Source: Styela clava
Lineage: Eukaryota
Direction: 5' to 3'
Assembly (NCBI RefSeq): GCF_964204865.1
Contig: NC_135262.1
Location: 6,014,001 to 6,078,000 of the forward strand
DNA length: 64,000 nucleotides
Shown in pieces: positions 24,601 to 59,259 of this stretch. Below the pieces are notes generated by a model, which worked only from the letters and a program-made list of their open reading frames with translations, was not told the origin of the DNA and made no database searches. Position numbers and translations under genes: made by a program. How positions within the stretch are numbered: the first letter of the stretch is position 1; every line of letters begins with the position of its first letter.

Positions 24601-27600
24601 AAGGTAATTTTGTTCGCCTATTTTACATCAAGTTGTGTGAAGGGACCAAAACCTATGGGCAAGAGGTATATTCACTTGGCTAACACAGACAGTCCCCGAA
24701 CTCATATTAGAACTAAAATAAGGAAATTCAGAATAAAATTATGGCATAATCTGGTACATACACTATGGGAGTACCAACCCCTGCCCTAATGCCTTGGGGA
24801 CCCAATGGCCGGAAACACTCAGAAGACAGCTTGAGGGTGAGTAAACGACATACTTTGACAGAGAGGCATCTAATTCCAAAATCCTCGTTCCTATGTTAGT
24901 GAGGTTGCTAACATCTGATGACATGGAAGAAACATCTTTTGCCAGTTTTGTGAAAAAATCTGCTTCAACGTGGAGATCAAGGGTGGAAAAACTTGCTTCA
25001 GCGCCATGTAGCATTCCATAGTCAACCTTAAAAAAAGGATACTTTGAGTGATCAATTAGAGCAGGGTTTCCCAAACTGGGATCCGCGATGGCTGGACCAG
25101 GTGGCCACAACCCTTTCTCCCTGTCTTCATGTTGGCACAGTACTGGCGTTACCGTTACTTAAAAGCATTATTGGGGTTCCCTGAATTTCAGGTATTCTGT
25201 GAAAGTTTCTCATTATTGACAGGACTTTTTCAATTTCTCAATACCTATTTGCATGAAGCAATTTCTTCCTCTTTCACAATTATTAGGAATAAAAACAGAA
25301 GTCGCCTAAATAGTGTTGATATGTGCATAGGATTTCATTCAAAATCTTATGTAGAATCAAATTCCCATACAACAAATTTGGAAATTTTTTTCAGAGAATA
25401 GAAAAATCAAACCTGCTGTCTCCATAAAGGTAAATCATCCACGGTTTGAGCAAGTGACATTTTAGTGTCGACTTCCACTGCCAATTCCGATACAAGTTCG
25501 ATATCCCTGGTTTTACATGCATGAACGAGTTCATGTAACTTTTGTTGCAGCATGTCAGCACGATGTTGGGCTTCTTTTACATCTTGCGTCAACCTTGATA
25601 TTCTGTCATTGTACACCTGAGCAAGTGAAAATTTGGATCTTTTACAATTTTATTCAGCTATCACTATCATTACATGGTTTCCCAAACTCAATGTTATTAG
25701 GTACCCTTTGGACAATCTTAGATCGCTTGTGAAAACCCAAATTGCCTTCTGAACTGTGAATGTACACTCGATAGTTACTGTAGTTGTATTTAAAGCTCCC
25801 ACCTTGGGGAGGGGGAGTGACTTTCTGAAGAGTTGCTTAACTCACGTCTTCATATTATTACCACCAGGAGATAAAATATTTCAAAGTTATGGAAAGGTCA
25901 ATTCTTACACTCAATCTAATTTATCCCTTGAAAGTGTCTAGATGTATCCATGGGGGGTACAAGTACCCAAGTTTGGGAAACCCTGTTGTTAGACCATGGT
26001 GAGTCACTGCTGGGTAATCATCATTCGTTCCTGCGACTTGCCTTCCCGATAAAAGTGAGTGTTCACTTTTTGAAACAAATATTGATACATATTCAATTAA
26101 ACGATTGTGCTTCATGATGTCCAATACAGAAAATTTCAAATTGAGTTTTTATCCTGAGGATCTGACTTTAAAAACTGCAATATATAAAATTAATGCTTGC
26201 CTAGAGTCTACCCAAGAGCAATTAATATGATGATATGGATGACTGTCTTCTCTAGTGAAATGTTAAAGTAACCAACTTACATGAAGAACATAATGGATCT
26301 GTGCTTGAACAAGCGAAAGGTCGCCAGCTCCTTCTACATTAAAATTCCGATGCTTTGTTTCTTGTTGACGTTTCCGAGAACTCGAAGTTGACGACTCTGA
26401 GTCGTTTGTTGTCGGAGAAGACTTCCTCGTCGTTTCTTTAATCTGAAAATCCGCGAGTTCCCTCACAAAATGACTTTCTAGTAAAAGTTTTTCCGCAAGA
26501 ACACCAGCGTGTTTAAGCAATTCACTTTCTGCTCCGGGTGTTAATGTCTGCGGAAACACGCCCTTGGCGTCTGAATGTAGAGTTGCCGTCGGCGACGTAC
26601 TCGCTTCGTATCTCTCGAGCGAGGAAGCCATCTCAGCAACGACCATTGCTTGTAAACTGAGTTGTTCCGCTAGTAAGTTAGCAGTTTGATTTGAAAATAC
26701 TGAATTGTCATGGGGAAGATTATCCTGGGAATTGTGTGAGTTTGATAGAATGGAAGAAGAAAGTGCACTTTTAGATTGATGAGACGTTGTAGGTAAAATA
26801 GTTGTATCATTTGCTGATGACGATAGATTGTCGTTTACGTCCGCACTTGTTATTTTCAACTGATCTGTGAGCAGTTTGAGTTTATCTAATGTCATTTTTT
26901 CAATTTCCTTTTCATTTTGATCTCTTGATGCTGCGGTTTCGCTTGATTGATTTTGGTTGACTTGCGAATTGTTATAGTTTATTTGTATGCTTCCACCGTC
27001 AATAGTTTGCAATGTGTCTTCTAAAACCGATTCCAAAAACGGTAAAATATTTAGAGGTTCTTTGACAAATTTGTTACTTCGTACTTCAGCGATTTTAACG
27101 CGAAGTTCGTGTAAACATTGTCGGACTGAAAACCATTTCTTTTCGTCTTCTGCTATTTTCTTTTTCAAGTTTGTTATGGTTGTTCGATTTGCCTGAAGAG
27201 TCTCATGAACATCAGTACTAAAAAAAAATAAACGAAAATGCTGTAATTACAATTATCATAGTAACGTTTTATCATGTGAAAACATTTGCTTTAAATTTCC
27301 ATTTCAATTGTAGCAAGTTTGTGGAGTCTGGAAAAATTCAAAATTAACCCGACACTTTGGGTTAAAAAATTTTTGGATTCGACACTTTGGGTTTTCAACT
27401 CCAGCCTCAAGAAAATCGCATTTTTATAACAACTCTGACCCATGCAAGCCTTCTTTAATAGACTGTTAAGAACGCTTAATACTTTCAGCCAGCGTACCCA
27501 GGTGCAGTTGCGGGTCGTTACCATGCATAGCAATTTTTTCAGCTGGAAACTCTTTTTAGATCCTCAAGATACTTAAAACCCCCCCGTTTTCTGGCATCCG

Positions 27601-30600
27601 AGTGATCCGTCCAGACCCGCTGGAAGTTACAGTCTTACTTGGAAATTAAAAATTTCAACCCCCCCCCCATTTCAAAATTCCTGGCTATGCCCCTGCTTTC
27701 GACATCAGGAGAATATTATTCACGATGGTTAAATTTTTGACATCATTTGAATTTTCAACTTTTTCTAAACTGCGGAACACTTTTTGTACCCATACTTTTG
27801 CAGAACATCAGAAAAAAATTTCGGATTTTACCGAAATAATCGTTTCTAGTTGTCCGTTTCTCTTTTCAAATATCTGTCCAACTTAACAAGCGTAATTGAT
27901 AATAACGTGCGGTACGCGTTGTGATATCATCGCAAACTGCCTACTATTTGGCAGAAAAAATGATAAATTGAATTTCTGTTATGATGTTATAAAACTCAAC
28001 TAATTTTCATTATAATGCAACAAACTCGTCTTGAATCAAACAAGTGATTTTTGATTCGCAATCTAAAAAAAAAATATGCCAATTGGAAAAAAGTGAAACA
28101 ATAATTTGACGCAGAACACATGACCGTCATTTATGGAACACCGGGTGATAATCACTGATAATAACGATATTTCCCATCATTATTACCTTGATTGAGCAGC
28201 TTTTCTTGCTTCCTTCAAAGCTTTTATAACTTCTTCCAACCTCTGATGCGTTGAATCTAAATCACCTTCTTTCTTCCGCAACTAACGAGAGAGTATAAAT
28301 TTAAATAATGTTAAATTGAAAAGCTATTTCTGTCTAATAATCAGTGGTTGGGGATGCCAAAGAAATTTGAAATTTAAGCGTTTTTCAAGAAAATAAAAAA
28401 AGCGTATATACTCATTTCATCAATAAGTACGTAAATTTTCGATAAATCACAGAGACACTTAAAGTAGCGATACTGTTTTTTTGGTGCTCTCGAAGTATGC
28501 GAACCAAGATGGCGGACATCGGAACGTAACATGGGTAACAGGTTAGGGTTAGGCGATAATTTTTTTCCAATTTTCCTTATTTTAGTCCCATTATCAGTTC
28601 GAAGACTAGCCAAGAGCCTCCCGTAGTATTTATACCTAAAATTATGGCCTAACCCTAACCTAGTACACATATTACATTCCGATGTCCGCAATCTTGGTTC
28701 GCATACTTCGGGAGCCCCGTTTTTTTTTTTATAATAGGTATGCTTGTACAAAGTTTTTACAGAGACTTCAGATGGAAGTGAACCTGACTTTTGACAAATT
28801 CTATTTTGAGAAAAAAATTGAACTAATCAGATAATTTGATCTGGTCCGGCCTTGTTCAAAGCAAAAATCATAATAGGCATTGCATAAAAGAACATAATTT
28901 GAATTTTCTCAAAGTTACCTTGGATGTTAGGACTTCAATTTTCTCATCCTCTTTATTTTGTTTCATCATTTGATTTATGGAGGAACAAGAGGAATTGGAT
29001 CCTGCTTCATCAGATTCATCTGTTTCCCTTCTACGAGGATTCTCTAACGCTGACAAACGGGCAGCTAGCATTTGACCAGTGTCCTCCATTTCAGCTTCAA
29101 GTTCTGAAACTCGAGCCTAGAAAGTTAAAAAAAGAGATGATAATTTCACTGCAGTTTTGAGGTTATAAATTTGAGAAATTCTTGAGTAAATCAGTGCTAA
29201 GGAGGCTTGAGTAATAGACTCGACTCGCGTCACCATTCATTAAGTGGCCTGTAACATCACAATAGAATGACTTGGACTCACCATCCGCTAAGCATTACTA
29301 AAATTGACTTAACTACAGACTCTTGGCTTGAGGATTTCTACTCAGCACTGGAAAAAAAAATTTTTGACAATATATATCTCAATATCCTAAAGTGGGTAAA
29401 TTTTTGATTTATCGCTAAAACATTGAAAGTAGCATATACTGTTTTTTATTAAAAAGATCGCTTGTACAAAGGCTTTACAGGGACTTCAGACAGACAATTA
29501 TATGTAAGTGAACCAGGGACGAACATATATCTCAATATCACCCTGGGTAGTCATTGGTAGGGGCGAGCAAGGTTTTTGAACCAGGGGCCAAAAGTTTTGC
29601 CCACTTAGAATGGCGGGCCATGTAAGTGTGATGTAAAAAGTTACATTTTATGAACAATATTTACAGTATTACAAAGTAAAGTTGAAAAAAATAGGCCTTG
29701 TGTCATAACTAAATTTAACCGCAATCTCAACAAATTCCTTGAGTTATTTTAGCTGAAACATCAAAATTTAATTTCAGTTTGGTTGTGGCAGCATCAGGCG
29801 GGCCAGATTGAATTACCCAACAGCCGGATTTGGCCCACGAGCCATACTTTGCCCATGTCTGGTCACAGGCAACACTAGATTTGGAAAGATTCTGCCACAT
29901 AGAAAGTTACGGCCCCGATGTATTAGTGGCTGCATGTACAACAATAATAAATTGCTACCTTGAAGCTTCCACTTGTTTCTGATTTCAAGTTTGACCTTTG
30001 TGTTTTCGATCGTTTTTCCGATTTCGTTAATTCCATTTTCAAATCTCTTATTTTAGCATTTAGTTTTTCACTTTCTTGTTGCCTCGTTTGTAATCCTTGA
30101 TGAATCTGAGAAAAATGAAATTCATAGGAAATATTACATTGTGAATTTAGAAGAAATATCACTAAGACGTTAAAAAGTAGAAATACTGTTTGTTTTTTAC
30201 GAAATGTACGTTCGTATGAAAGAGACTTCAGACAGATATATGTATGTGAAGTTCAGGAATGGCCAAAACCGAATAATTCACTATTACAAATACATTCAAC
30301 TATTTTCGAATACATTCTAAATTGGGAGCAAGTTCATTTCTCATCGTGCAAAATTATATTAATCATTATATTATTCATGTTGATCACATTTAAAACGATA
30401 CAAACATGAAGATGTTGTTTGGAACAAGTTCGAGTTTTGACCTGCTTAAATTCCTTGATTTGAAAAAAAAAATGTTCTAAATTATTATTAAATATAAAAA
30501 TTTTATATTGAATATAATGAGTTTCGAATGTATTCAAGAACTTGATACGTTTTCGACATCTCTGATTAGTGAACATTTAATTAATTTTAATTATGAAATT

Positions 30601-36600: not shown

Positions 36601-39600
36601 TGGACAAAAGAAAACAAACAGTAATAAAGGTCGATAAGTAGATTAAGTATCTACAGGGATGTAAAATGAGTTTAATAAATTAAATATTAATTCTGACAAA
36701 GATGTTTTGACTAAAAAATTCGTAAAATCTACTAAGCATATTATATTATATTTTTTGTAGCAGAATGAAAACAAAATTCTGGAACATAAAACTATATAAA
36801 AATCAATTCGGCCCATTTTAGACTAAAATTTTGGTACTACCGTAGTATGTGTACCAGGTTAGGGTTAGGCCATAATTTATTTCAGATTTTCCTTATTTTA
36901 GTTCTATTAAGAGTTTGGGGACTGTTCGTGTTAGCCAAGTGAACAAAATTAGTTACCTCCATAATGGTACAAATACTTCTGGAGCGCCAAAATTTTAACA
37001 TAACATGGGCTAATCAAGTATCGAACAAGAATACGAACTCATCGAGATACTAACAAAAATAAATATCTCACTACGCAGCAAATCTCGCAACAAAAGTAAT
37101 TTACACAATTGTCATTTTATGATGACCAATTTAGAAACCACATAAAGGATCAATGGACAATAATTTGTATCAAGGGTGATTACACACAATAATGCTACAC
37201 AGTTTGCCACTTTTTCAATTTGTCATGTAAGGCCAAAGATAAATAATACAAGAGAGCAAGGAATTATCATTGAGCCAGACTTGAATGGTCATACATCAAA
37301 AACCGTAATTCAAAACAAATTTTACGTACTTGAATCGAAAACCCATAATTACGGTTCAGTTCAACTTCTCCCATCCTTTCGACTTCGGTCAGATTTATTT
37401 CGCCCTCTGCTTTCGAAAACTTGAAAAAAAATTGACATTTCATAAATAAGAGTTGACGTAATTCTCAGGTAAAAAACTCAAGATAATTGACAGTTTCAAA
37501 CATGTAATTATCTACACAAGAACTAGGTTGTTTACAATCAAGCTTACACATTCGAGGACAAGGTTGATAATACTTAAAGTCGGTAAAAAGTGTCAAGTGT
37601 CAGTGGTAATTCTCAAAAAAAATAACATTTATACAGATGTGTCTGAAATAAATATTAAATAGGCTATTCAACGTTTCTTTTCATTAAGGAAATAATGAAT
37701 TGCTAATACTACTTTCTATGATAGCAGCACAGTGTCTCCAAAACCCCATGGTCATTGATATTTTTTGTTATGACCACAACCATATGCTGAAGAAGGAGGG
37801 ATTCCACTATTTGTATGCATTGGAATAACGTAGTGAAACATATATAAGTAAAATGTGAAAAAATAACTAATAACAATAGTTTGATTCTAGACTAGGAAAG
37901 AAGAAAACTCACTGCATCTTCAGACGAGGGATCTTTATAAAAACAGAGCGTATTATCGATCAGAACGAACCAATGTTTTGAAAAGGTTTCTTTAATCGTA
38001 TCTTTTTGTTTCATCATCAACCATCCCTTTCTTTGATTGAGAGCTTCCATCTGAAAATAGTGATAAAGTACATATGGTGTAGTGTAGATCGAAGAATGCT
38101 GTGTCCAATGGATGTGTTAACTTAATAGTAACACAGTAGTTATCCCTAACTTAGAGCTGGTCAAAGTTGATATGGTATATACAACAGGTTGCAAGACATC
38201 ATGATGCACAATTTGACTATATTAATAACAGTAAATTGAAACAAAGAATAGTTTTATAATATATGATTCTCAGTGAACTGGTGGTCATAATACCGGTATT
38301 GTAAAAGATTTGATACTACTTCGTTTTGATCTTAGTGTCCATATATTTGAGCACTGCTCTCTTGTCTTCAATTGTGAAGGATGTAAATTATTGTTTATCT
38401 TACAATTCCTGTGTTTTCTAAATCACTGATTTAATATACATTGACTATTTGTTCTTTATTAAACACAACCTGATTTAGGATACATTTGAAATACTTCGAT
38501 TGTTCGAGTTTGGCCAATCCAGTGAGGATACTCAGTGGTAGTGAGAGTTTAGACAGTACATATTCATGGAATTTCTCAATTGATTTGATTTTAATAATAT
38601 TTACATAAAATACCATTACCATAAAAGTAACTTTACTCAAGCATACCGATACCACAAAAAAAATAAAACAAAACCAGTCATTACTTAAACTTATACCAAC
38701 AATGTAAATAACATGTTGCCTTGTTAATATTTTCACTTAGAGAAATTGATGGTACCCAGTTCATTTTTTATCACACACTACAGTTATAATACTTTTAGTT
38801 ATCAAAAATTCGATGTATACAAATATTATTATCATAGAACCTTCAAGAATGTAACACAAAACCTTGATTCAACATATAAAAGGCATTAAATTACCATCAT
38901 AACTAATTATGTACAAATCGAGCATGAAAAATAGACAATTTAGTTCTAATTTATCTTAGATTTATGCTTGATGAAACGAGACAAGATAAGATATGATTGG
39001 ATAAAAGTTATGACAGGAAACATACCGCAACAGCGATGGATTCACGGTCGAGCGATTTAGCTCTTCGTAGTGGCTTGTCGGATGTCTGTGTTCCCTGGAT
39101 AGGAAATAATGAACATAAATTAATGCAAATATAAATTGCTGAAATGCTTATTAACAGAAAAACATTGCGAACATAAAATTACTCTGTTTACGGTGAATGA
39201 AACTAATTTAGAATGAGTATAATAATTAAATGACTAGCTAGAATTTTAAAAAATAAAGGCTGTTCACCTGTTTCATATCTGTCGATTTCCTTGATATGCT
39301 CCTCCCACGTTTCACATCAACATTGAGAAAATTCTTGTTTTCCGAAACAGCTTCTGGGGAAGAGAGCACCATAGTTGGCTCTGATTTCGGTTGATCCGTA
39401 TTTTCCAATTTTGGGCTTCGTAAATTGTCGTGTATATCCGGTGGTGTACTTTTGTCTTGATCAATCTTGAAAAACGAGAAAAAATAGGTGAAAAACACAG
39501 AAACGAAGCATTTTAAAATGTGAAATAACTGTAGTCTTTTTATTTCACAAGCAAGATTGAAATGTTTTTCTCTAGTAACACTCACTGTATAATCAATAGT

Positions 39601-42600
39601 AGGCCTGGTGTATCTCTTCCCAGCTCTTTTCTTCCTCTGAGCATCTTTCTTCGCTGTTTCAGGAAACACGATAAGTTGGTCGAACCACCTGATTGAAACA
39701 ATAAATAGAATGAATAAAACCATCTAACTTATAACACAGAGAAAATAGGATGGCATAGTACTTCCAATTTTAAGATGTAATTAAATGGATGTACAGATAG
39801 GAAGCCACTATATTTAAAAAAAACTGTGTGACAATTTTCGCATAGCTTGCATAAATTCTTGGGCTCTACGGGTAGCAATAGGCACAAGGCTTAACTAAAC
39901 AAGATATCTTTACGTATGATGCAAAAATGGTTAGGCTCAATGTCCTAAAAATTGAACCCATATGGTATTTGGTTAGGGTCAGATCAGGGATGGCCAAAAT
40001 GAATAATCTACTATTACGGATAACAACATTTTCATACAATATAAGAATTTCATCTAATTAACAATACATTCTTGTACATACGCATTAGAACTTTCTCTGT
40101 TTTCCGATCTTATAAAATATTTCATGTCGGTTGTATAAATTCCAATTGAATATTTTTGTCCTGTGATAACTTCTGAATGAACGACATCAGAACATTGATT
40201 CATGTTGATGGTTCCTTGTGCAAGAGTGTTTGCCTGAAAATAAGGATAAATAATTAGAGCAGTGGTTTTCAAACTTTTTGAGCCGCGCCCCCTTTTTAGA
40301 AATTGTCAAGTATCGCGCCCCACCTCAAAAATAACTAGCTAACAATAAGCTACAAATAATAGATAGTAAGGCGAAAATATGTTTTATTCAAAAAATACGC
40401 TGAAAATGAGTGGATGGAACGCATATTCATGCATAGGTCACAGCTCTAGTTTGTAATTGCCAAATTTGCAATTGTGATGTGTTTATGGTTGACCCGTGCA
40501 TATGTCTCACTGTTATTTTGTGATTTGCAACGCTCGATGCTGCAATAATCAATATTCCACTTTTTTATAGCAACTTGTTATACAAATATAACATATACCA
40601 TGTGTAATGGAAACATACAAATAATAAAAAAGATTGTTCACAGTCCACCAACAAAATTCCTAGATCTATTCAAAAATTTAACTTTGAGAGCAGCCTAAAA
40701 ACGACATACAGTGTAATATTGCAAATATTGATGACAATGATAACGACAAATGAGTGTGCCAATACCAAACAAATGGGAGATTGTACAAATAAAAATGACA
40801 GAGCAAACTGATATGAGCTCTGTTATCTAACTCTAATTACCCCATACAAACAAAATATTGCGGCCAATCCTTTTAATACGCTAGCAGAAACAATATTTGG
40901 ATATCCCATAGGGTGCAATCAATGTGGTTAAATGCATAATGCATGTTGCACCAAAACCACACTACACAGCAAGGGATTAGGATGTGACTACTTCAACCTA
41001 ATGCAGTGATTCTCGAACTTTTTAAGCCACGCCCCTTTTTTTAGAATTTGTCAAGTCTCGCCCCCACCTCAAAAATAACTAGCTAACAATATGCTACAAA
41101 TACGAGATGTAAGACGAAAGTATGTCTTATTAAAAAAATACATTTGAAAAAACATGGATGGAACGTAAATAATAAAATGAATGAAAATTTTCAAATAGGC
41201 GAGATCAAATCTAAAAAATATTTTCATTTTCAATTAGCTACTCGCCCCCTAAAAAAAGTGTCTCACCCCATCGTTTGAGAACCACTCAAGGAACTTGATT
41301 ATAAATTCAGTAATTTAAAATCTACCAAAAAAGTTCATTTACACACAAGATAGGGGAAATTGGAAAAAAAATTTTGACTTGGATTATTAGTGCAATTTTT
41401 CAGTCATTTCATTTCTTATTAATAATAAATATACTTATATTAGGGAATCAACATCATTTGAAAATATTAGTTGAAGCTGATGTTACACATTCATCTATTG
41501 CATGGTTTCAATTTACTGGAAAATATCTAAATACCTTATCAAATATTATTAGGTAGTAGCGATCTAATTTCCTGTTATGATTACTGTAGTTTGAAAACAT
41601 TAAATGATGTATGTTGTACTTGTACAAGGTACATTATATTATAAAGCAATGTCATATTAAAATGCATTATATATAAAAAAATATATACAAAAGTTGTCAT
41701 CTATATAATATAACATAATATAATCGAGCCTATATAATTATCCCCATTACATGCATATATTAACATTCGTTTCTTTCTGTTTACAGTTATTATGAGCATT
41801 ACTGTTTAATAAATGTACAGTAAATGTCCCATGACTATTGATTCTATTTGTGTGTGAGTGATAGTTATCTATGCTCATAATCAAACGATGCCTTCTGTAC
41901 AATGCCCATGGACCGGTTGTGATTACTCTACACCTGATGATGCAGACTATAACGCAGCAGTAGCCTTACTTCAGCTCCACAAGGAAGCCCTACACTCTAC
42001 TCCTATCAACCAGACTGTAAGAGTAGAAAAACCAAAACGTCCAACCATCGCACCGAGAGGCACTGCAGAGGAGTGGACTTATTTCTTACAAAGATGGAAG
42101 GAATATAAATGCGCTTCAAGAATAACTGATCCTGATATTACTTATCAACTTTTAGACTGCTGTACTGAAGATTTGCGACGAGACCTCACACGAACATACT
42201 ATGATTTATCGACATCAGATGAAAACACAATCCTAAAAAACATAATGTCTCTAGCGATCAGAAAGGAGAACATCTTGGTAGCTCGACTTCAACTACACAA
42301 GCTCCAACAAGATCGAGACGAGCCTATTCGAGCATTCGTGGCACGACTGCGTGGGCAAGCTAGCACTTGCCGCTTTCATGTTAAATGCCAATGTGACCCC
42401 CAAACACATGTAGACTACAGTAACGCCATGATTCGCGACGCACTTGTCTGGGGCCTCTATGATGACGACATCCGTCTTGATCTCCTCTCACAGGCCGACG
42501 AGGAAATAACTTTAGAGGAATCCATCAAATTCATCGAGGCAAAAGAGAGCGGCAAACGCTCAGCACATCGCCTCACCGAACATGACACCTCTGCTGCTAT

Positions 42601-45600
42601 AAACAGTTCTTACCAGCGAAAGCAACGGGATAGGGCTCGTGACAAACGCGAATCCTGCGAATACTGTGGGAAATCTAAGCATGGAAGCAACAAAGATCGA
42701 ATTAAATCTTGTCCAGCATATGGCCAAACATGCTCAAGATGCGGGATCAAAAATCACTTTGGAAGTTTATGCCGCCAACCTGAATGGAAATTGCGACAAC
42801 GGGATCGTAAGGTCTTTCCTTCCCCAAAACGAAAAGCTCACAATGATTCTGGAAACACTGAAGACGCGGCCTCTATCCTTGCAACACTTTGCTCAGTAGA
42901 TGACAGCTCTTCCCAAAGTCCAGAGGCCAGCAGCGTCACACTTGACCATCACATTTATAACGAACTGTGTGATATCTGGGAAAGAAGAGCCTCTGACCCA
43001 CAGCCAAGTGTTAATGTCTCAATCCTCCATGACCCATCTGATACTCGTCTCATTGGCTCAAGCCCTCAAATTTCAAACCCAACACGTTCTGTCACATTCC
43101 CTGCCATAGCTGACACTGGCTGCCAGTCATGCCTCGCTGGCATCAATCTACTGGAAAAGCTGGGTCTTGGCCCACAGCATCTGAACCCAGTAAAATTGCA
43201 GATGAGTGCAGCTGACTGCCGTCGTATTCAGATCATAGGCGCACTTTCGCTGAGAATATCAGCTCCTTCAAGCGCGTCGATAATTGAAACACGCCAATTG
43301 GTATACTTCACTGACTCAACGAATAGGCTCTACCTATCTCAACAGGCTTGTAAAGCACTCGGCCTCATATCTCGATCCTTCCCAACAATTGGCGAACATA
43401 AAGAGAGTTACAGGTCTAAAACAACTTCGTCTCCTATACACACCGGATCGGACATGGTCGCTCCTTGCGGATGCCCTATACGAGAACCACCTCCGCCAAT
43501 CCCAACCTCGGCACCTTTTCCACTCACCCACGAAAACCGAGAAAAGTTGGAAAAATGGATCCTCACTTATTACGCATCAAGCTCATTCAACGTTTGTCAA
43601 CATCAACCATTGCCAAGGATGAGTGGTCCTCCCTTACGTTTGATGGTGGATCCAGAAGCAAGACCGGTCGCCCACCACACACCAATTCCCATCCCCATAC
43701 ACTGGCAAGATGAGGTAAAGTCAGGCCTGGACCAGGATTGCAGACTTGGTGTCATAGAACCTGTACCAATTGGTGAACCTGTAACATGGTGCCACAGAAT
43801 GGTCATCTGCGCGAAAAGGTCTGGTAAACCACGCCGCACGGTCGACCTCCAAGCACTGAATAAACACTCTACACGTGAAACACATCATACACAGTCACCA
43901 TTTCATCAAGCTAGAGCGGTCCCACCAAACACTTTAAAGACAGTTTTCGACGCATGGAATGGATACCATGCAGTGCCCCTACACCCAAGTGACCGTCACT
44001 ACACCACCTTTATTACCCCCTGGGGCCGATATCGCTATTGCGTAGCACCACAGGGATACGTCGCATCAGGTGATGGGTATAGCCGTCGTTTTGACGAAAT
44101 AGTGTCTGATATACACAACAAGACTAAATGTGTCGATGACACTCTCATATGGTCCAATGACACGGAAGAAGCATTCTTTCAAACAATTGAATGGCTAGAC
44201 AAATGTGGTCGAAATGGGATCATTCAAAACCCCACCAAATTCCAATTTGCATCACCAATCGTAGCTTTCGCTGGCTTCGAGATCACACCAACAGCAGTTC
44301 GTCCTTGCTCAAGAACACTGCAGGCGATAGCAGATTTTCCAACCCCAAAAAACATTACAGACATTCGAAGTTGGTTTGGACTTGTCAACCAAGTTGCATA
44401 CGCTTTTGCGTCCACAAAACACATGCTACCATTCCGATCTCTCCTCAAATCTAAAACATCATTTGTATGGACTAAACAACTTGACGACCTTTTTGAGCAA
44501 TCGAAGGCTGTCATTGTAGATGAGATCAAGAAGGGCGTCGAGATATTTAACAAGTCAAGACCCACATGCCTTGTAACTGACTGGTGCAAGGACGGTGTTG
44601 GTTTCTGGCTAATGCAGAAACATTGCGAATGCACTTCAGCTAAACCCTTCTGTTGTAAAACTGGCTGGAAGATTACACTGGTTGGCAGTCGTTTCACCTC
44701 CGGGGCTGAATCTCGCTACTGGCCAATTGAGGGGGAAGCACTAGCTGTCGTGGACGCACTTGACAAAGCACGACACTTTGTACTAGGCTGTTCAGATCTC
44801 ATGATTGCTGTTGATCACAGGCCCTTAGTAAAGGTTTTGGGCGATCGCTGCTTAAACGACATTGCCAATCCTCGCCTTCGCAATCTCAAGGAGAAATGTC
44901 TGCGCTACAGATTCAAAGTCGTACATTTGCCTGGCATTCGCAATGTCGCTGCAGACTCATTATCACGCCACCCAGTTGGCGAACCAAACATGTTGGAGCT
45001 TCCTGACGACGTTGACTCAGGCGCCATTTTCACCGCCATTCGCACATTCGACCCCGAAACAGCGGAAATCTGCTCTTATTCAACCGATTCCACAAAAGAA
45101 ATCATCAAGAATGTGACATGGAATGACATACGGCTTGCCACAGCCAGCGACCCATCAATGCGTTTTCTTATCGACAAAATCCAAGACGGCTTCCCAGACC
45201 GACCAGCAGATATCCACACTGAAATTCGCCCCTTTCATCAATACCGTGACAATCTCTCAGAGTTTGACGGTGTCTGTCTCTACAAGGATCGCGTTATCAT
45301 TCCACCCTCCTTAAGAGATAGGGTACTCAAAACTTTACACTCTGCACACCAAGGAGTATCAACAATGTGCTGTCGTGCAGAATCCTCCTTTTTCTGGCCC
45401 GGTATGACTAATGCCATCATCAAGCTACGCAACAACTGCTCAGCTTGTAACAGAATGGCCCCCTCACAACCTAGTGCCCCACCAACTCCTCCTCTACAAC
45501 CAATGTATCCCTTTGAATGCCTGGCAGCGGATTTTTTTAGCTACAGAGGTAAACATTATTTGGTGGCAGTAGATAGATACAGTAACTGGCCAATTGTTGA

Positions 45601-48600
45601 ACAAGCGAAAGGAGGAGCCGCTGGACTGATCACGACTTTAAGACGAACATTTGTTACTTTTGGGATTAGCGACGAACTCACTTCTGACGGTGGTCCAGAG
45701 TTTACTGCGAAGGAGACAACCACTTTCCTCAAGAATTGGGGTGTTAAACATCGCTTATCGTCAGTGGCGTTCCCCCACAGCAACACACGAGCTGAAATTG
45801 CCGTCAAAACTATCAAACGTCTCATCACCAATAACACTGACGAAGAGGGCTCACTCGACACCGATCATTTTCAACGAGCGATACTTCAGTACCGCAATAC
45901 TCCCGACAGGGATACTCGCTTATCTCCTGCTATGTGCATTTTTGGCCGCGCCATACGTGATTTCATTCCCATCCATCCTGGCAAATACAAACCACATAAT
46001 ACATGGCGCGAGACACTGATTGCCAGGGAAGATGCCTTACGCCATCGGCATATGAGAGCTGCAGAGCGCCTAACCGAACACACCCGATCTCTGCCACCAT
46101 TATCTATTGGCAACCATGTTCGCATCCAAAATCAGACTGGCCCACACCCTCTAAAATGGGACAAAACTGGAGTTGTCATTGAGGTGCGACAATTCGATCA
46201 ATATGTGGTTCGAGTAGATGGTTCCGGTCGTGTCACTCTCAGAAATCGTAAATTCTTACGTAAATACCAACCAGTCATCGACCGTGAACCACTCACAAAG
46301 TCAACACACAACAATACGTACAATCAGGCACAATTCGTGCCCCAGCTACCTGTGACTCCGCCTCCTCAGACTGAGATTAAAGTCACCAAACTCTCACAAC
46401 CAGTCATGAACCAGCAAGATATTGCAAAGCCAAGACCTCTACCTCCCACAGGACACAAAGACGTTGCTCCAGCTACACAAAAATTGCCTCGTGCACTACG
46501 GGCTCTTATGCCCCATAACTCGCCTGGACTCGGAGAATCCACTGATGCTCTACCAAGAACACGAAGTCAGTCAACGCAGTAATGGCTTGAACATTCAAAG
46601 ACTACTCAGTCTTGTGATTCATTCTTCTCAAAGACTTGGGGGGGCATATATAATTATCCCCATTACATGCATATATTAACATTCGTTTCTTTCTGTTTAC
46701 AGTTATTATGAGCATTACTGTTTAATAAATGTACAGTAAATGTCCCATGACTATTGATTCTATTTGTGTGTGAGTGATAGTTATCTAGAGCCTAATCAGG
46801 CTTCAATCAAATATGTCGGTTTATGAATATTGTAGTTTGGACAAATTGAACAAATATTTGTTCAAATTTATTTACCAAGCTGATTAAAAGTTGGAGAAAA
46901 GGTAACAAGAGAGAAAGCTTATTTGATAAGAAGCGACTAATTCATCTGAGGCAGGCTAAAATCGAATAATTTACTATTCTGATTTTATATGTTTTGGAAT
47001 AAAACTTTCAAATATGGAATATACAATGTATGATGAATAGTTACATGAAGAACAAGGAAATCTGATTGAAGTATTACAATGGAAATAATTGTTGAAGGAT
47101 TTTTTTTAAAGTGTCACAACGTCTATTTTGTCTCTGACTGCCATCAGATATCGAATGACCAAAATAACAAATGAAAAACTATTTTATAGTAAATGAAATT
47201 AATATTGAGGATTTACTATAGTATTTTGAATATAACCGATTTTGGGTGTATTGGATATTCAATTCCTGGATATCTCTGCTCTACTATTGACAAAACCTTC
47301 CATAAATGCCAATTTAATTATATAGACTCAATACCGAAATTGGGCATAAGAATCATAATAATAAATGATGGTGAATGTTTAATAAAAACCGATACCACAT
47401 ACAAACAAACCATGTACATAAAGCTTAAGCGATTTCAACTAGTTATAATTCAAATTTCTTAATCAAACTTCTATGAGAAGTGGCTGATATCATGATTTTT
47501 ACACTCATGGAAAATTAAAAATATTCGAAACCGATATAGAGAAGCAAAGTATGCAGATGTCAGAAACAGTCATCAAAATACTTTAAGAAATAACTGCTTT
47601 AGGTATACTGGTTAACCAATTAGAATTTTTCAACACCTTGATTGACAACAGAGTACAATGTAAGGACTTACTATTTTTGGAAAGACCGGAATCTTTCCAT
47701 CTTGTGATTGACTACCCAATCTATTACACCCTATTGAGGTGATGAGCATTTGATTAGAACTTGACGTCTTTCACTTGTTGTGACACTAATAAATTTAGGT
47801 CTAACAACCTACAGTAACTACCAGGCCTATCCAGCCCAGTTGCGTACCAGTATTTGATGAAACCAAAATCATTACCGTAAAACCAAAATGTCAGCAGAAA
47901 ACTGTGAAGAAAACAAAACTCACATTGTCATCCAATGCATATCGTAAAGCACCATGTTCGAACAGTACAAAGTATCTTCTTTGCCATTTCTGAAATAATA
48001 ACATTATAATAATAAGAGCAAAATCACACTATTCAAATGGAATTGGGAAAGCCAAAAAAATTCAGTCTGGCATGTTGCGTTGATATTAGAATCGGATCAT
48101 GACTCCTATTTTGAACTCTCATTCGAGTCGAAATTTTAAACTTATTATAGTGTTTTCATAATACAATATAACCAATTCAAAGATTTCGTATTAAACTATA
48201 TAATATACCAAATAATAATCATGTCAATATCACAATGTGATCTAGTATTTCAGAGATAGTCAACTTATTTTAATATAGTTTACCCAGACAGAATTCGAGA
48301 AATATACTGTTAATATTAGACAAACCCCGATATATATTGAAGATGAATGACAACTAATCTTGATTATGGTAAAAAGTTAAAACCTCTAATGATAAGATAT
48401 ATCAATCATTACGAAAATTTCTGTAGAAAAGTGTTTGATGCCGCCATATATGGAAGAGCACACCTATGATTGTTAATACCAGAAGAAATGTCAAGCAAGC
48501 ATAGCATAATATGCCAAACATGAATGAATGATATCACAAGCGTAAAAACATAATCTATAACCTTTAAACTTAATGCTTATAAAAGTTCATACTACAACAT

Positions 48601-55306: not shown

Positions 55307-55681
55307 TCAAAATCTGTTTTTTTCCAATGTTTCTCTTTCAACACTTAGAAATGCAAGATCACGGAGACGATCCTGTCCCGTTGATGCACGCGAATACGAC
55401 AAAATAAGTTTCAATCTGCTGAAAGACCGTTCACAGCTTGCAATTGAAACTGATATTGTTAACAAAATTTGTAGAGAAATTCGCAGATTGAATAAAACGT
55501 CGTCTCCAAAAGACACAATAAAACCAAGAAGAGCCGAAGGAGTTTCTGGTTGATCTACAGTTCTGTTACTGAGCAGCATTCTGCAATCTCCAATTTCGGT
55601 GAAAAGTTCGTGGCCATTGATGTCCGTGTGGTAGAGATTTGCAAAATCTGTGCAATCTCGACGAATTGTCGAAAACGGCAT
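55307..55681 (-). pseudogene. hAT transposase C-terminal dimerisation domain fragment
   Basis: NLRISLQILLTISVSIASCERSFSRLKLILSYSRASTGQDRLRDLAFLSVERE; no upstream catalytic region in frame. Confidence 0.85.
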
Positions 55682-56346
55682 TGAGGTCTTTTAGCACAGT
55701 ATAATATATTTTATGTAACTCTGCCGCAAAGTACGGTACTTTGACAACAAAATACAATCCACGTATTACTCAAAACATGTATTAACATCATTCAACCAAA
55801 TTCCGTTTCCATTTGTCTCCAGCACAGAACTAATATCAACTTACATCCGAGTGCGCAGGCAAGAACTTAACGATACAGAACCACGTAATTAACCCGGTGC
55901 ATTTTGTTACCTAACGTTACCAAATCAAATTTTGCTTTGTTTTCCGGCCAAATTTTTTTGGCCATGTAATTACGATGGAAATCTGACCGTGCTATGTGCG
56001 TGATGACGTCGTCTGACCAAGTGTGCAGTTTGCCATGTACTAAGATTAGATGTCTGCCGCCGGTGCGATCTTGCTTGTGACCGTTTTTTACCTTTGTTGT
56101 GAAATTTTTGCCAGCCCCATTTTGACGCCCCTGTACCTTGGCGCCCGGGGGCATATGTACCCCACTGCCCCCCCCCCCCCCCCCCGCAATGCAAACGTTC
56201 GTGGGTGCAAATGTTTGTGGGTGCAAATGTGCATGAGTGCAAACGTCCATGGGTGCAAATGTCCGCGGGTACAGATGTACATGAGTTCAAATGTCTGCGA
56301 GTTCATTCTATATGCGGGTGCTAAAATCTATGGGTGCAAAAGAATG

Positions 56347-56592
56347 GGTACTCCCGAGGTATGTGAACCAAGATGGCGGACACTCGTTCGTAGTATGTGC
56401 ATCAGGTTGGGGTTTGGCCATAATTTCAGGTAGGCTACAAATACTAAGGGAGTCACTTGGCTAGTCATTGAACTCTTAATAGAACTAAAATAAAAAAAGT
56501 TGGAATAAAATTATGGCCCAACCCTAACATGGTACACATACTACGTTCCGGTTTCCGCCATCTTGGTTCACATAGCCTACCTCGGGAGTACC
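56347..56592. mobile_element. MITE family A, long palindromic subtype, inserted in a GGGTGCAAATGT array
   Basis: GGTACTCCCGAGGTA...TACCTCGGGAGTACC ends; degenerate TSD AAAGAATG/AAAATATG. Confidence 0.82.
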
Positions 56593-59259
56593 AAAATATG
56601 GAGGTGCAAATGTCCTGAGTGAAGTTTACGGGTGCAAATGTACGAGGGTTAAATTGTGCTGTCATCATCATTTTTGTCCCAGCGAAGAGTAAAGCCATCG
56701 TCAGCGGTAGTCTTTCATCTAGTTGACCCGTAGGATCTTGTATTAATTGTGCACATGCCGTAACCTCCTCTAACCTGTTCAAAACCTCTGTTTTTGATAA
56801 GTTGTGAAAAGTAAATCTGACTACGGACAGATGCGCACAGCTTCAAGAATTCCAATCAGGAGGTTAGACACCCTCTACCTAGTCCTATGGCTGTCGAAGT
56901 GTTTTCTATTTCCTGGTACCGTAGTAAGTTACTTAGGACGCTAGGTTACTTTTTCCATTTTCAACACCGTTCATTCTTTTATACAAAAATTGTTCTCCCA
57001 CTTTGGGTTGGCTGGGTATTACTTTTACGTCAAAATGTTCCTTCCATTGCATGTAGCCTACTCAGAGTATTTGCCTGAATCGTTTTAGAATTTAAGTTTC
57101 CAATTGATGATTTTATTGGATTTGATTTTTATAATTAATTTTTATCATGCAACTAAAAATAGATCTCAATTCCAATGACTAGGCCGCGGTTAGGAGTGCA
57201 GGAAATTTTTGTCGTGTCGGATATGCCTCGCTTTTGATGTATGTTGATCTGAAACTCTAGTAGAGTCTAGATATTTGATGCAGATATATCTATTTGATAA
57301 GATGTTTTATTAAAATACAATCTCTAACCACTGAAAATTTGGTCCAGTAGTTAATAAGAAAAGCGATTTTTTTCATAACGATAAGAAAAAAATACCAATG
57401 TAAATTTCGTGCCCAATAAACAGATAGATCTTACCTCTCTGTTATTTCGCTCCTTGTTATGCTGACAACAACAGTTCGGAAAAAAATAAAGGCTGTCCAA
57501 CTACCCTGTGTACTCGTCCGTCGCTTTCACAAAATTCCAAAATTTTACGAAAGAGACTATTAATATTGTGACGTCATAATGTTTTGTTATGCATTTTTAA
57601 CCAAATTTTCAAAGAAATAGTGTCCGAAAACTAGCGCATACCATCATTTCGAACTAATGGTAAGATTTAAAATTCTAAATCCGATAATACTGCAGTAATA
57701 TTTCATATTTAGAACAAATATTTATTGTACGGTCGTCCGTTCCCTCCCAGTTAGTACCGAAAGCATATGTTTACTCAATATTTAAATATGTACCCATATA
57801 TTGTTTTCCTGGTTTGACAAAATGATATAAACCCCTCTCTCTCCCTCAAAGTAAAGTTTTGAGCCCCCTCTGATAAGAGAGCAACAAATGACGAACGCAC
57901 ACGAAAACAGCAATTGACCAACGCACCAACAGCTTTGTGCTGGCATGGCGGTATGGTGGCTGCTTCAATGAGTATCGGCTGACCAGAAATTTTATGCATT
58001 TCTAGTCACAGGCTTACAGCATAAAAATCAGCTAGCTGAAAGCAAATTGTACAAACCGGATATACCTAAGAATATTGGAGAAAAAATTTTGTTCATAGAA
58101 AACTGACGGAATAAATTTTTATCGTATGAGGAAAGTTAAGTTTTTGCGACACAGAAGCTATGTCACAATCACGTCAATACGAAAAGGATTGCGGGCTTCG
58201 TTAAGTTTCATGTCGCAGACGTCACCCTGGGCAATCGTCGCTTCACTTTGTCAAGCCTTATTACTTGATTATGACGTAATATTATCGTAATTTTAGAATG
58301 GCGTAGTCAAGTGGGGGCAGGAATGACACATACAACATTTTTACGCTACGCAAACTAAAGCCCTAACTGCACTAGGTTACATTGTGCCCACAGGTAGGGT
58401 AGTCGTTTCGTAGTTCGAACTTCGTTTATGATACTATTTTGGGGAAGTTGTAAGTAAAATGTTTCGTTTTAGCTGATATCTTGTTTATATACTTATAGGT
58501 TATAGTCTTCTGAAATATTATACAAAAATTAACAAAAACATCAGGCGTCTCTATGCTAAATAACTCAGTTTACTTCTCTTTTTCAGAACAAAAAATGTAG
58601 CCTATTTTCTCAATTCAATTTCCCAGAATTATTCGACACCTTGAGGCCATATGCATCGCCCTTTTACTTTCTTGTGGCTATTGGGGCGACTTCTTTTTGG
58701 AGCGAAAAAATCAATATATATCTATACTCACACTCTGATAATGTTCTTGCTATGGACAAAGATTCGTTGTTTTATCAGTTAAATATATGACCCGTTTTTC
58801 TTTCGAGAGACCTCGGTCATCGCACTTTTTGCGAATGACGCTGGTAAACTACTCCCTACAGGTCTAGATAAAGATTTCGACATCTCTCCGTCGACATGAC
58901 TTGACAAGTCGGCGTAAACAAGTCTTGTTTTCTCTCATCCTTATTTGTTTATTATTTCGTTTCGTCGCCAGTTGGGCTGTTTATATTTCTTTCGTATTCG
59001 AAGTTCGCTGTTTTGGCAATGTTAAGTTATTTGCGATGTAAAGCGGATTGTTTGATTTTCATTTAGTTAAATTATAAGGTTTGATTCATATTGCGCAATT
59101 TAACTTTGCTATTGTTTGCATCTTTTAGAATTAAGTATGTTGTTAACCGGCCTGTTGGTCCTAAATATTAACAACCCTTTACAAAATGCATTTCTACTAC
59201 TTTACCGTATCTATCGCCACACTATTTCGTCGTTTTTCGTCACATATATTCGTCTATGT

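Follow-up and report, generated by a model that had tools for sequence, protein, structure and literature searches.

The CA dinucleotide at the 3' DNA end has been called invariant for retroviral integrases (PMC5329712, PMC11054761), and the long terminal repeat (LTR) models of animal Gypsy elements end in TG...CA except in Zam (PMC3601003). Self-priming has been described for Tf1/sushi, Tcn1 and TAR (PMC6317226). In Tf1, Tf2 and Tj1, in the Tf1/sushi chromoviruses and in the plant element Tcn1, the primer site is complementary to the 5' terminus of the RNA of the element itself and not to a transfer RNA (tRNA) (PMC4600332, PMC6317226, PMC5341516), and for Tf1/Tf2 the primer is described as being freed by RNase H (PMC4600332, PMC5341516). 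We analyzed a 64,000-nt stretch of the Styela clava genome (NCBI RefSeq assembly GCF_964204865.1, contig NC_135262.1, positions 6,014,001 to 6,078,000 of the forward strand; hereafter the window) that contains a Ty3/Gypsy element at 41731-46787. This element is probably a recent copy of an active, envelope-less family belonging to a marine-invertebrate clade with an inherited TA...TA integrase signal and self-primed reverse transcription. TA...TA ends (AtRE1) and self-priming (Tf1) are each known, and their clade-wide combination appears to be undescribed.

The element is intact. Its LTR pair of 141 bp shows 0 mismatches, and the identity extends 0 nt beyond 41731-41871 and 46647-46787 on either side. 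Both LTRs read TATA...TCTA, the element is flanked by a 5-bp GAGCC duplication (41726-41730 and 46788-46792), and its termini form an imperfect inverted repeat (TATATAA vs TAGATAA). An earlier note on this DNA had described these termini and held that the left end, despite 2 nt of slack, would still start with TA. The 3' LTR settles the ambiguity at 41731, because there the same TATA directly follows the purine tract. The features of the element are as follows.

41726-41730 (+): left target-site duplication GAGCC, single copy in the empty-site contig of public run X1
41731-41871 (+): 5' LTR, 141 bp, TATA...TCTA, identical to the 3' LTR
41756-41763 (+): TATA-box-like element, predicted promoter by motif position, with a presumptive function
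41784-41788 (+): initiator-like CAGTT motif, predicted RNA start near 41785
41789-41799 (+): predicted self-primer, 11 nt complementary to 41871-41881 (pair probabilities 0.45-0.91; 17/200000 shuffles)
41800-41822 (+): small predicted hairpin with AATAAA (41808-13) in the loop, from the fold
41831-41868 (+): predicted U5 stem-loop within the primer duplex, from the fold
41872-41881 (+): putative primer-binding site abutting the LTR, starting TGC and not TGG, from sequence pairing
41888-46582 (+): single gag-pol reading frame, 1564 amino acids from ATG
42656-42772 (+): two Gag Cys/His knuckles, invariant C/H columns in the alignment
43859-44284 (+): reverse transcriptase core with CVDD motif (PF00078, E 1.7e-11)
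44468-44851 (+): RNase H-like domain (PF17919 and PF17917)
45299-45796 (+): integrase zinc-binding and core domains up to the catalytic Glu at 45794-96 (PF17921 and PF00665)
46638-46646 (+): G-rich polypurine tract abutting the 3' LTR, from sequence
46647-46787 (+): 3' LTR, 141 bp, TATA...TCTA, from identity to the 5' LTR and a run X1 contig
46788-46792 (+): right target-site duplication GAGCC, from sequence and the run X1 empty site

The open frame encodes Gag, a protease-like motif, reverse transcriptase, RNase H and integrase in Gypsy order. Assignment to Ty3/Gypsy follows from the two LTRs with a target-site duplication and from the pol order of reverse transcriptase, RNase H and integrase; the TG...CA ends that are usual for the group without defining it are absent. 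The best solved relative of the integrase profile was Ty3 integrase (E 2.2e-14). Pfam searches gave no match to env in the frame, no chromodomain across the whole frame or in its last 100 amino acids, and no match for Gag, whose paired knuckles we take to resemble those of Mag. YxDD is the active-site motif in most reverse transcriptases; the site of the window element (44162-44173) reads CVDD, and CVDD or CIDD is found throughout the clade.

As the window site by itself is compatible with duplications of 3-7 bp, further copies were sought. Part or all of the window is carried by 18 public runs from 7 studies, and 4 of the 21 listed runs were examined. In run X1, one contig joins 41725 to 46788 and skips the intervening 5062 nt, representing an empty-site allele, and another of exactly 141 nt matches 46647-46787. 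The summed contig depth of this run was ~110 on the body, 236 for the LTR contig and ~17 on the flanks, where depth does not equal copy number. Raw reads of run X21 covered the body at a depth of mostly 15-30 and the flanks at 0-2, and 518 of 724 reads had at least 99% identity to the element. Three raw reads of X21 with unlike flanks (agreement 0.56) join at 46647; since X21 is a Hi-C library, they may be chimeric. Based on the identical LTRs, the read identity, the depth excess over the flanks and the empty-site allele, the window family is young, multi-copy and polymorphic, and its copies have the same boundaries as the window copy. The empty-site allele, together with the 5-bp duplications in relatives described below, confirms the precise integration that the earlier note had deduced from the duplication. 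Contigs of runs X5 and X14 join 46646 to 41731 and so close the element through one LTR, as a one-LTR circle or an assembly collapse would. As a collapse would give the same joint, we did not count it as a circle.

Of 4183 candidates in a protein search with the integrase region, 1312 were relatives; the best 120 have 71-81% identity, and the named relatives include Mytilus, Batillaria, Nucella and Lamellibrachia. Clustered with the window at 80% nucleotide identity, 79 loci from metagenomes and 6 more distant ones gave 49 families, the family closest to the window element showing 72%. No relative turned up in three scans of viral contigs, and an Atlas search gave generic reverse transcriptase/RNase H clusters only. 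Loci L080-L085 are animal-type Gypsy elements inside bacterial metagenome-assembled genomes, most likely through host contamination.

An exact 5-bp duplication at TA...TA ends was found in 10 of 16 two-LTR elements, from 4 families (the window element, L012, L014, L015, L017, L028, L040, L048, L063 and L073). Shifted 6-bp solutions are possible in some of them, and 5 bp with TA...TA is the sole reading common to all ten. We also examined the 29 families whose integrase is followed by an identifiable purine tract. The method itself fixes the first T behind the tract, so that the following base is the actual test; this base was A in 28 families and G in one (L084). A published table for Lamellibrachia luymesi holds 13 Gypsy rows with the motif TATA, all with 5-bp duplications, TGCA making up 89% overall (PMC8220671). 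The RNase H motif of our clade occurs 12 times in the alignment of that paper, in which gaps could hide further clade members, and all 12 occurrences belong to TATA rows, the 13th row having a near variant. In the supplement text the motif was not found in the reference elements Mag, Gulliver, DRM, CFG1, Hydra2-1, SPM, SURL and Cigr1. The window element and the L. luymesi TATA group thus have in common the RNase H motif, TA...TA ends and the 5-bp duplication, and by RNase H and reverse transcriptase motifs the L. luymesi elements (LLGY5, 6, 14 and others; LTRs of 117-191 bp, 5.0-5.6 kb in total) are of the same clade. As judged from these comparisons, TA...TA is an inherited clade trait.

The earlier note did not contain the second part of our reading, a self-priming structure beside the U5 end of the LTR (the right-hand end, U3 being the left) and the lack of a tRNA primer site. 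Primer sites for tRNA start with TGG as a rule (PMC6317226), rather than with the TGC that follows the 5' LTR here. The stretch 41871-41881 pairs perfectly with 41789-41799, just past the CAGTT motif and ~30 nt past the TATA-like box. The predicted 5' fold closes this duplex over the U5 stem at -25.5 kcal/mol, and the 11-mer of the window occurred in shuffled LTRs in 17 of 200,000 trials. The pairing of primer site and LTR is, as a predicted structure, the signature of Tf1-type self-priming. The hairpin loop at 41800-41822, within the primer duplex of the predicted fold, carries an AATAAA that could affect early polyadenylation.

In the upstream DNA of 44 loci from 27 families, we scanned for the longest inverted repeat with a threshold of 11 bp. 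A perfect duplex of 11-18 bp was present in 21 of the 27 families, and each duplex begins at the A that closes the LTR. No two of the 21 primer sites share a sequence; none starts with TGG and 19 begin with TG. When sites and LTRs were swapped between families, 0 of 420 pairs reached 11 bp (maximum 9). The duplex register placed the U5 end at TA in 19 of these families, at GA in one (L053/L054, with TA at U3 and a duplex of 14 bp) and at CA in one (L084), and L083 also ends in CA. In many relatives a CAG/CAC motif marks the start of the primer arm or precedes it by a few nt. The evidence pointing to self-priming extends in this way to a predicted pairing of primer site with LTR that covaries across families. 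By identity, the LTR pair of L084 (999-1286 and 6154-6441) has TA...CA ends, and by the purine-tract rule TG...CA ends; it has no duplication, and its left flank also ends in GAGCC, probably by chance.

These observations are compatible with the following course of events. Transcription would start near 41785, and the first ~15 nt of the RNA would fold back on the site immediately behind the LTR and enclose the U5 stem. By analogy with Tf1, the reverse transcriptase/RNase H of the element would free the primer piece, which would then prime the minus strand; the freed primer would end in CA or CAU, resembling the CA end of a tRNA. Because primer site and purine tract abut the LTRs without a spacer, the complementary DNA (cDNA) is probably flush, with little or no 3' trimming. 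Integrase would join the TA-3' ends with a 5-bp stagger, and it may need the final A and prefer a T before it, while tolerating G or C at U5.

We lean slightly towards an integrase that itself prefers TA, since the motif is mirrored at the two termini (mostly TAGA with TCTA/TTTA), and its reading of TA would be loose, since GA and CA ends occur in relatives. The altered end recognition suggested in the earlier note is in this respect a likely conclusion, with loose specificity, for which no residue determinant was found. Alternatively, the integrase could be indifferent to the penultimate base, and TA could be held in place by reverse-transcription signals: at U3 by RNase H cleavage behind the purine tract, and at U5 by the point where the primer duplex ends. 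Such indifference would agree with the GA and CA at U5 in L053/L054, L083 and L084, with the lack of any residue near the catalytic Glu that tracks TA, and with the contact of both termini with priming signals without a spacer. Two unrelated priming signals would, however, not yield a symmetric motif at the two ends, and the duplex does not include the penultimate base of U5; we consider an indifferent integrase unlikely. The pairing itself might also be structural or regulatory, serving packaging or the shielding of the poly(A) signal, while a host RNA of unrecognised kind acts as primer. Although 19 of 21 sites begin with TG, as tRNA sites do, and AATAAA lies in a predicted loop, the 21 different sites each match only their own LTR (0/420 swaps) in the same register and none is TGG, which makes this role quite improbable. 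The reading of an ordinary TG...CA element, altered in this copy only or with wrongly placed boundaries, could draw on the 3-7 bp duplications allowed at the window site and on the shifted 6-bp solutions in some relatives. It is refuted by the 141-nt LTR contig, the read junctions in other runs, the 28 of 29 families and the L. luymesi rows; the outcomes named in the earlier note as fatal to its claim, TG...CA copies or another boundary, did not occur in other runs, in relatives or in these families.

Several points weigh against an inherited TA signal combined with self-priming. In a motif-free scan the 11-bp duplex of the window only equalled the maximum of 12 shuffles, so that the case for self-priming rests on the relatives and on the position of the pairing. 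Six of the 27 families stayed below 11 bp: L068 (8 bp) and L083 (9 bp) are in register, and the other four (L011, L019, L036 and L045) have upstream DNA that is short or filled with repeats. The U5 ends of single-LTR contigs were taken from the duplex register, calibrated on two-LTR elements, and not from flanks. Among the two-LTR elements, L016 and L026 have duplications matching at 4 of 5 bases, the case of L079 is equivocal, and no duplication is seen in L004, L024 and L075; 8 of the 9 clean related insertions come from two related assembly sets, and L084 may be TG...CA. Boundaries, 5-bp duplications, clade-wide TA and the covarying pairing of primer site and LTR are read from the sequence, and the RNA start, primer cleavage, cDNA ends and integrase activity are predictions from it. 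Tf1 self-primes yet keeps TG...CA, and self-priming alone is therefore insufficient to explain TA.

The earlier note had suggested comparing the integrase residues around the catalytic Glu with those of TG...CA relatives. The position three residues before this Glu is Gly in Ty3 and Thr in the window element; 143 of 148 close proteins have C, S or T there, and 52 of 88 distant ones have Gly. L080 and L081 keep this Gly and their U5 nevertheless ends in TA, and thus loss of the Gly is not necessary for TA ends. L083 and L084 have the same motif as L080/L081, and their U5 ends in CA. The residue after the catalytic Glu is Arg in Ty3, mouse mammary tumor virus and maedi-visna virus, and V, I or L in 148/148 close, 23/23 intermediate and 77/88 distant proteins. 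A hydrophobic residue at this position is not sufficient for TA ends, as the CA-ending L083 and L084 carry it. In the foamy-virus intasome both positions are presumably in contact with the terminal base pairs, which our literature search did not confirm. Across the close, intermediate and distant proteins compared, TA is not tracked by any residue near the catalytic Glu, which also counts against a TA-specific signal, and the comparison of L080/L081 with L083/L084 yielded no determinant. In a tree of 26 integrases, the Gly-keeping group, which also self-primes, is split off (100/98) and mixes TA and CA inside; given this mixture and the lack of a root, the tree gives no order of events.

Compared with known systems, the window clade has, like Tf1/sushi, a duplex of at least 11 nt adjoining the LTR, and the self-complementary primer site that marks Tf1/sushi is present in the window element as a predicted pairing. 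The chromodomain of that group is missing from the regions searched, the primer sequence differs in every family of the window clade, unlike in Tf1/sushi, and the Sushi LTR model ends in TG...CA (PMC3601003). The window clade works like Tf1 in priming but is not classed as a chromovirus. Short LTRs, a single frame and a 5-bp duplication are shared with the Mag lineage (A, B and C clades; mosquito table, PMC3286476). The Mag A and Mag C LTR models, however, end in TG...CA (PMC3601003), and the primer sites of mosquito Mag elements are of the tRNA-Leu, -Ser or -Arg type (PMC3286476), whereas the window clade has no tRNA-type TGG site. With neither TG...CA ends nor a tRNA primer site in the window element, and with Mag references that are without the clade RNase H motif, a Mag label is not supported. 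Errantiviruses carry env and use tRNA primers. Zam/errantivirus LTRs of insects have inherited non-TG..CA ends in an animal Gypsy group, but their motif AGTTA...TAAYT differs from that of the window clade (PMC3601003).

AtRE1, an Arabidopsis Copia element, has 5'-TA...TA-3' ends as in the window clade, and 89% of classified non-TGCA cases are plant Copia (bioRxiv 10.1101/137141). Integrases of plant Tos17, TARE1, AcCOPIA1 and TGTT/AACA variants also accept non-CA ends (PMC5659011). Unlike these plant Copia elements, the window clade is Gypsy and spans many families and animal groups. The statement in the earlier note that LTR integrases nearly always join CA was overstated, real as the TA ends are, in view of AtRE1, of Zam and of the TATA listed among LTR_retriever motifs (bioRxiv 10.1101/137141, PMC8220671). 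In its available text, PMC8220671 names TATA merely in a motif list, not tied to a clade, and 'PBS' (primer-binding site) occurs twice, both times in the introduction. The available text of a mollusc survey makes no mention of PBS, tRNA or TSD (target-site duplication; PMC6238403), and that of an annelid survey none of PBS or TG-CA (PMC8556966). No account of an animal Gypsy clade that self-primes and has TA ends came up in our literature search, whose scope did not extend to Repbase, Dfam, most subscription journals or the supplements of bioRxiv 10.1101/137141; these supplements may list Gypsy TATA cases.

An active clade whose TA ends are integrated cleanly, and which has relatives with CA or GA ends, allows the role of the C to be tested by comparison. 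The clade is also a sign that self-priming is not confined to the chromoviruses and the plant TAR lineage. Such elements will be missed or wrongly trimmed wherever annotation insists on TG...CA and a tRNA primer site. More tentatively, and with rather less confidence than in the TA preference, the clade could be a large undescribed branch of animal Gypsy elements in which self-priming arose independently of the Tf1 chromoviruses, the RNA start came to mimic the CA of a tRNA, 3' trimming was dispensed with and the integrase later shifted from CA to TA. If so, it would offer a natural series of CA, GA and TA for studying the role of the conserved CA in retroviral-type integration.

In the surroundings of the element, two related repeats of ~140 nt lie 744 nt apart (40288-40426 and 41033-41170), and a short high-copy stretch is found just left of the element (41200-41240); all may be miniature DNA transposons. 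Long frames without a Pfam match at 24763-25158, 26263-27246 and 39238-39723 (-) may be host exons, in which case the element could be antisense within or near a gene. Similar translations at 28374-28826, 56050-56433 and 56465-56842 (-) suggest another dispersed repeat, and a remnant hAT transposase dimerisation domain lies at 55310-55690 (-; PF05699, E 7.9e-07).

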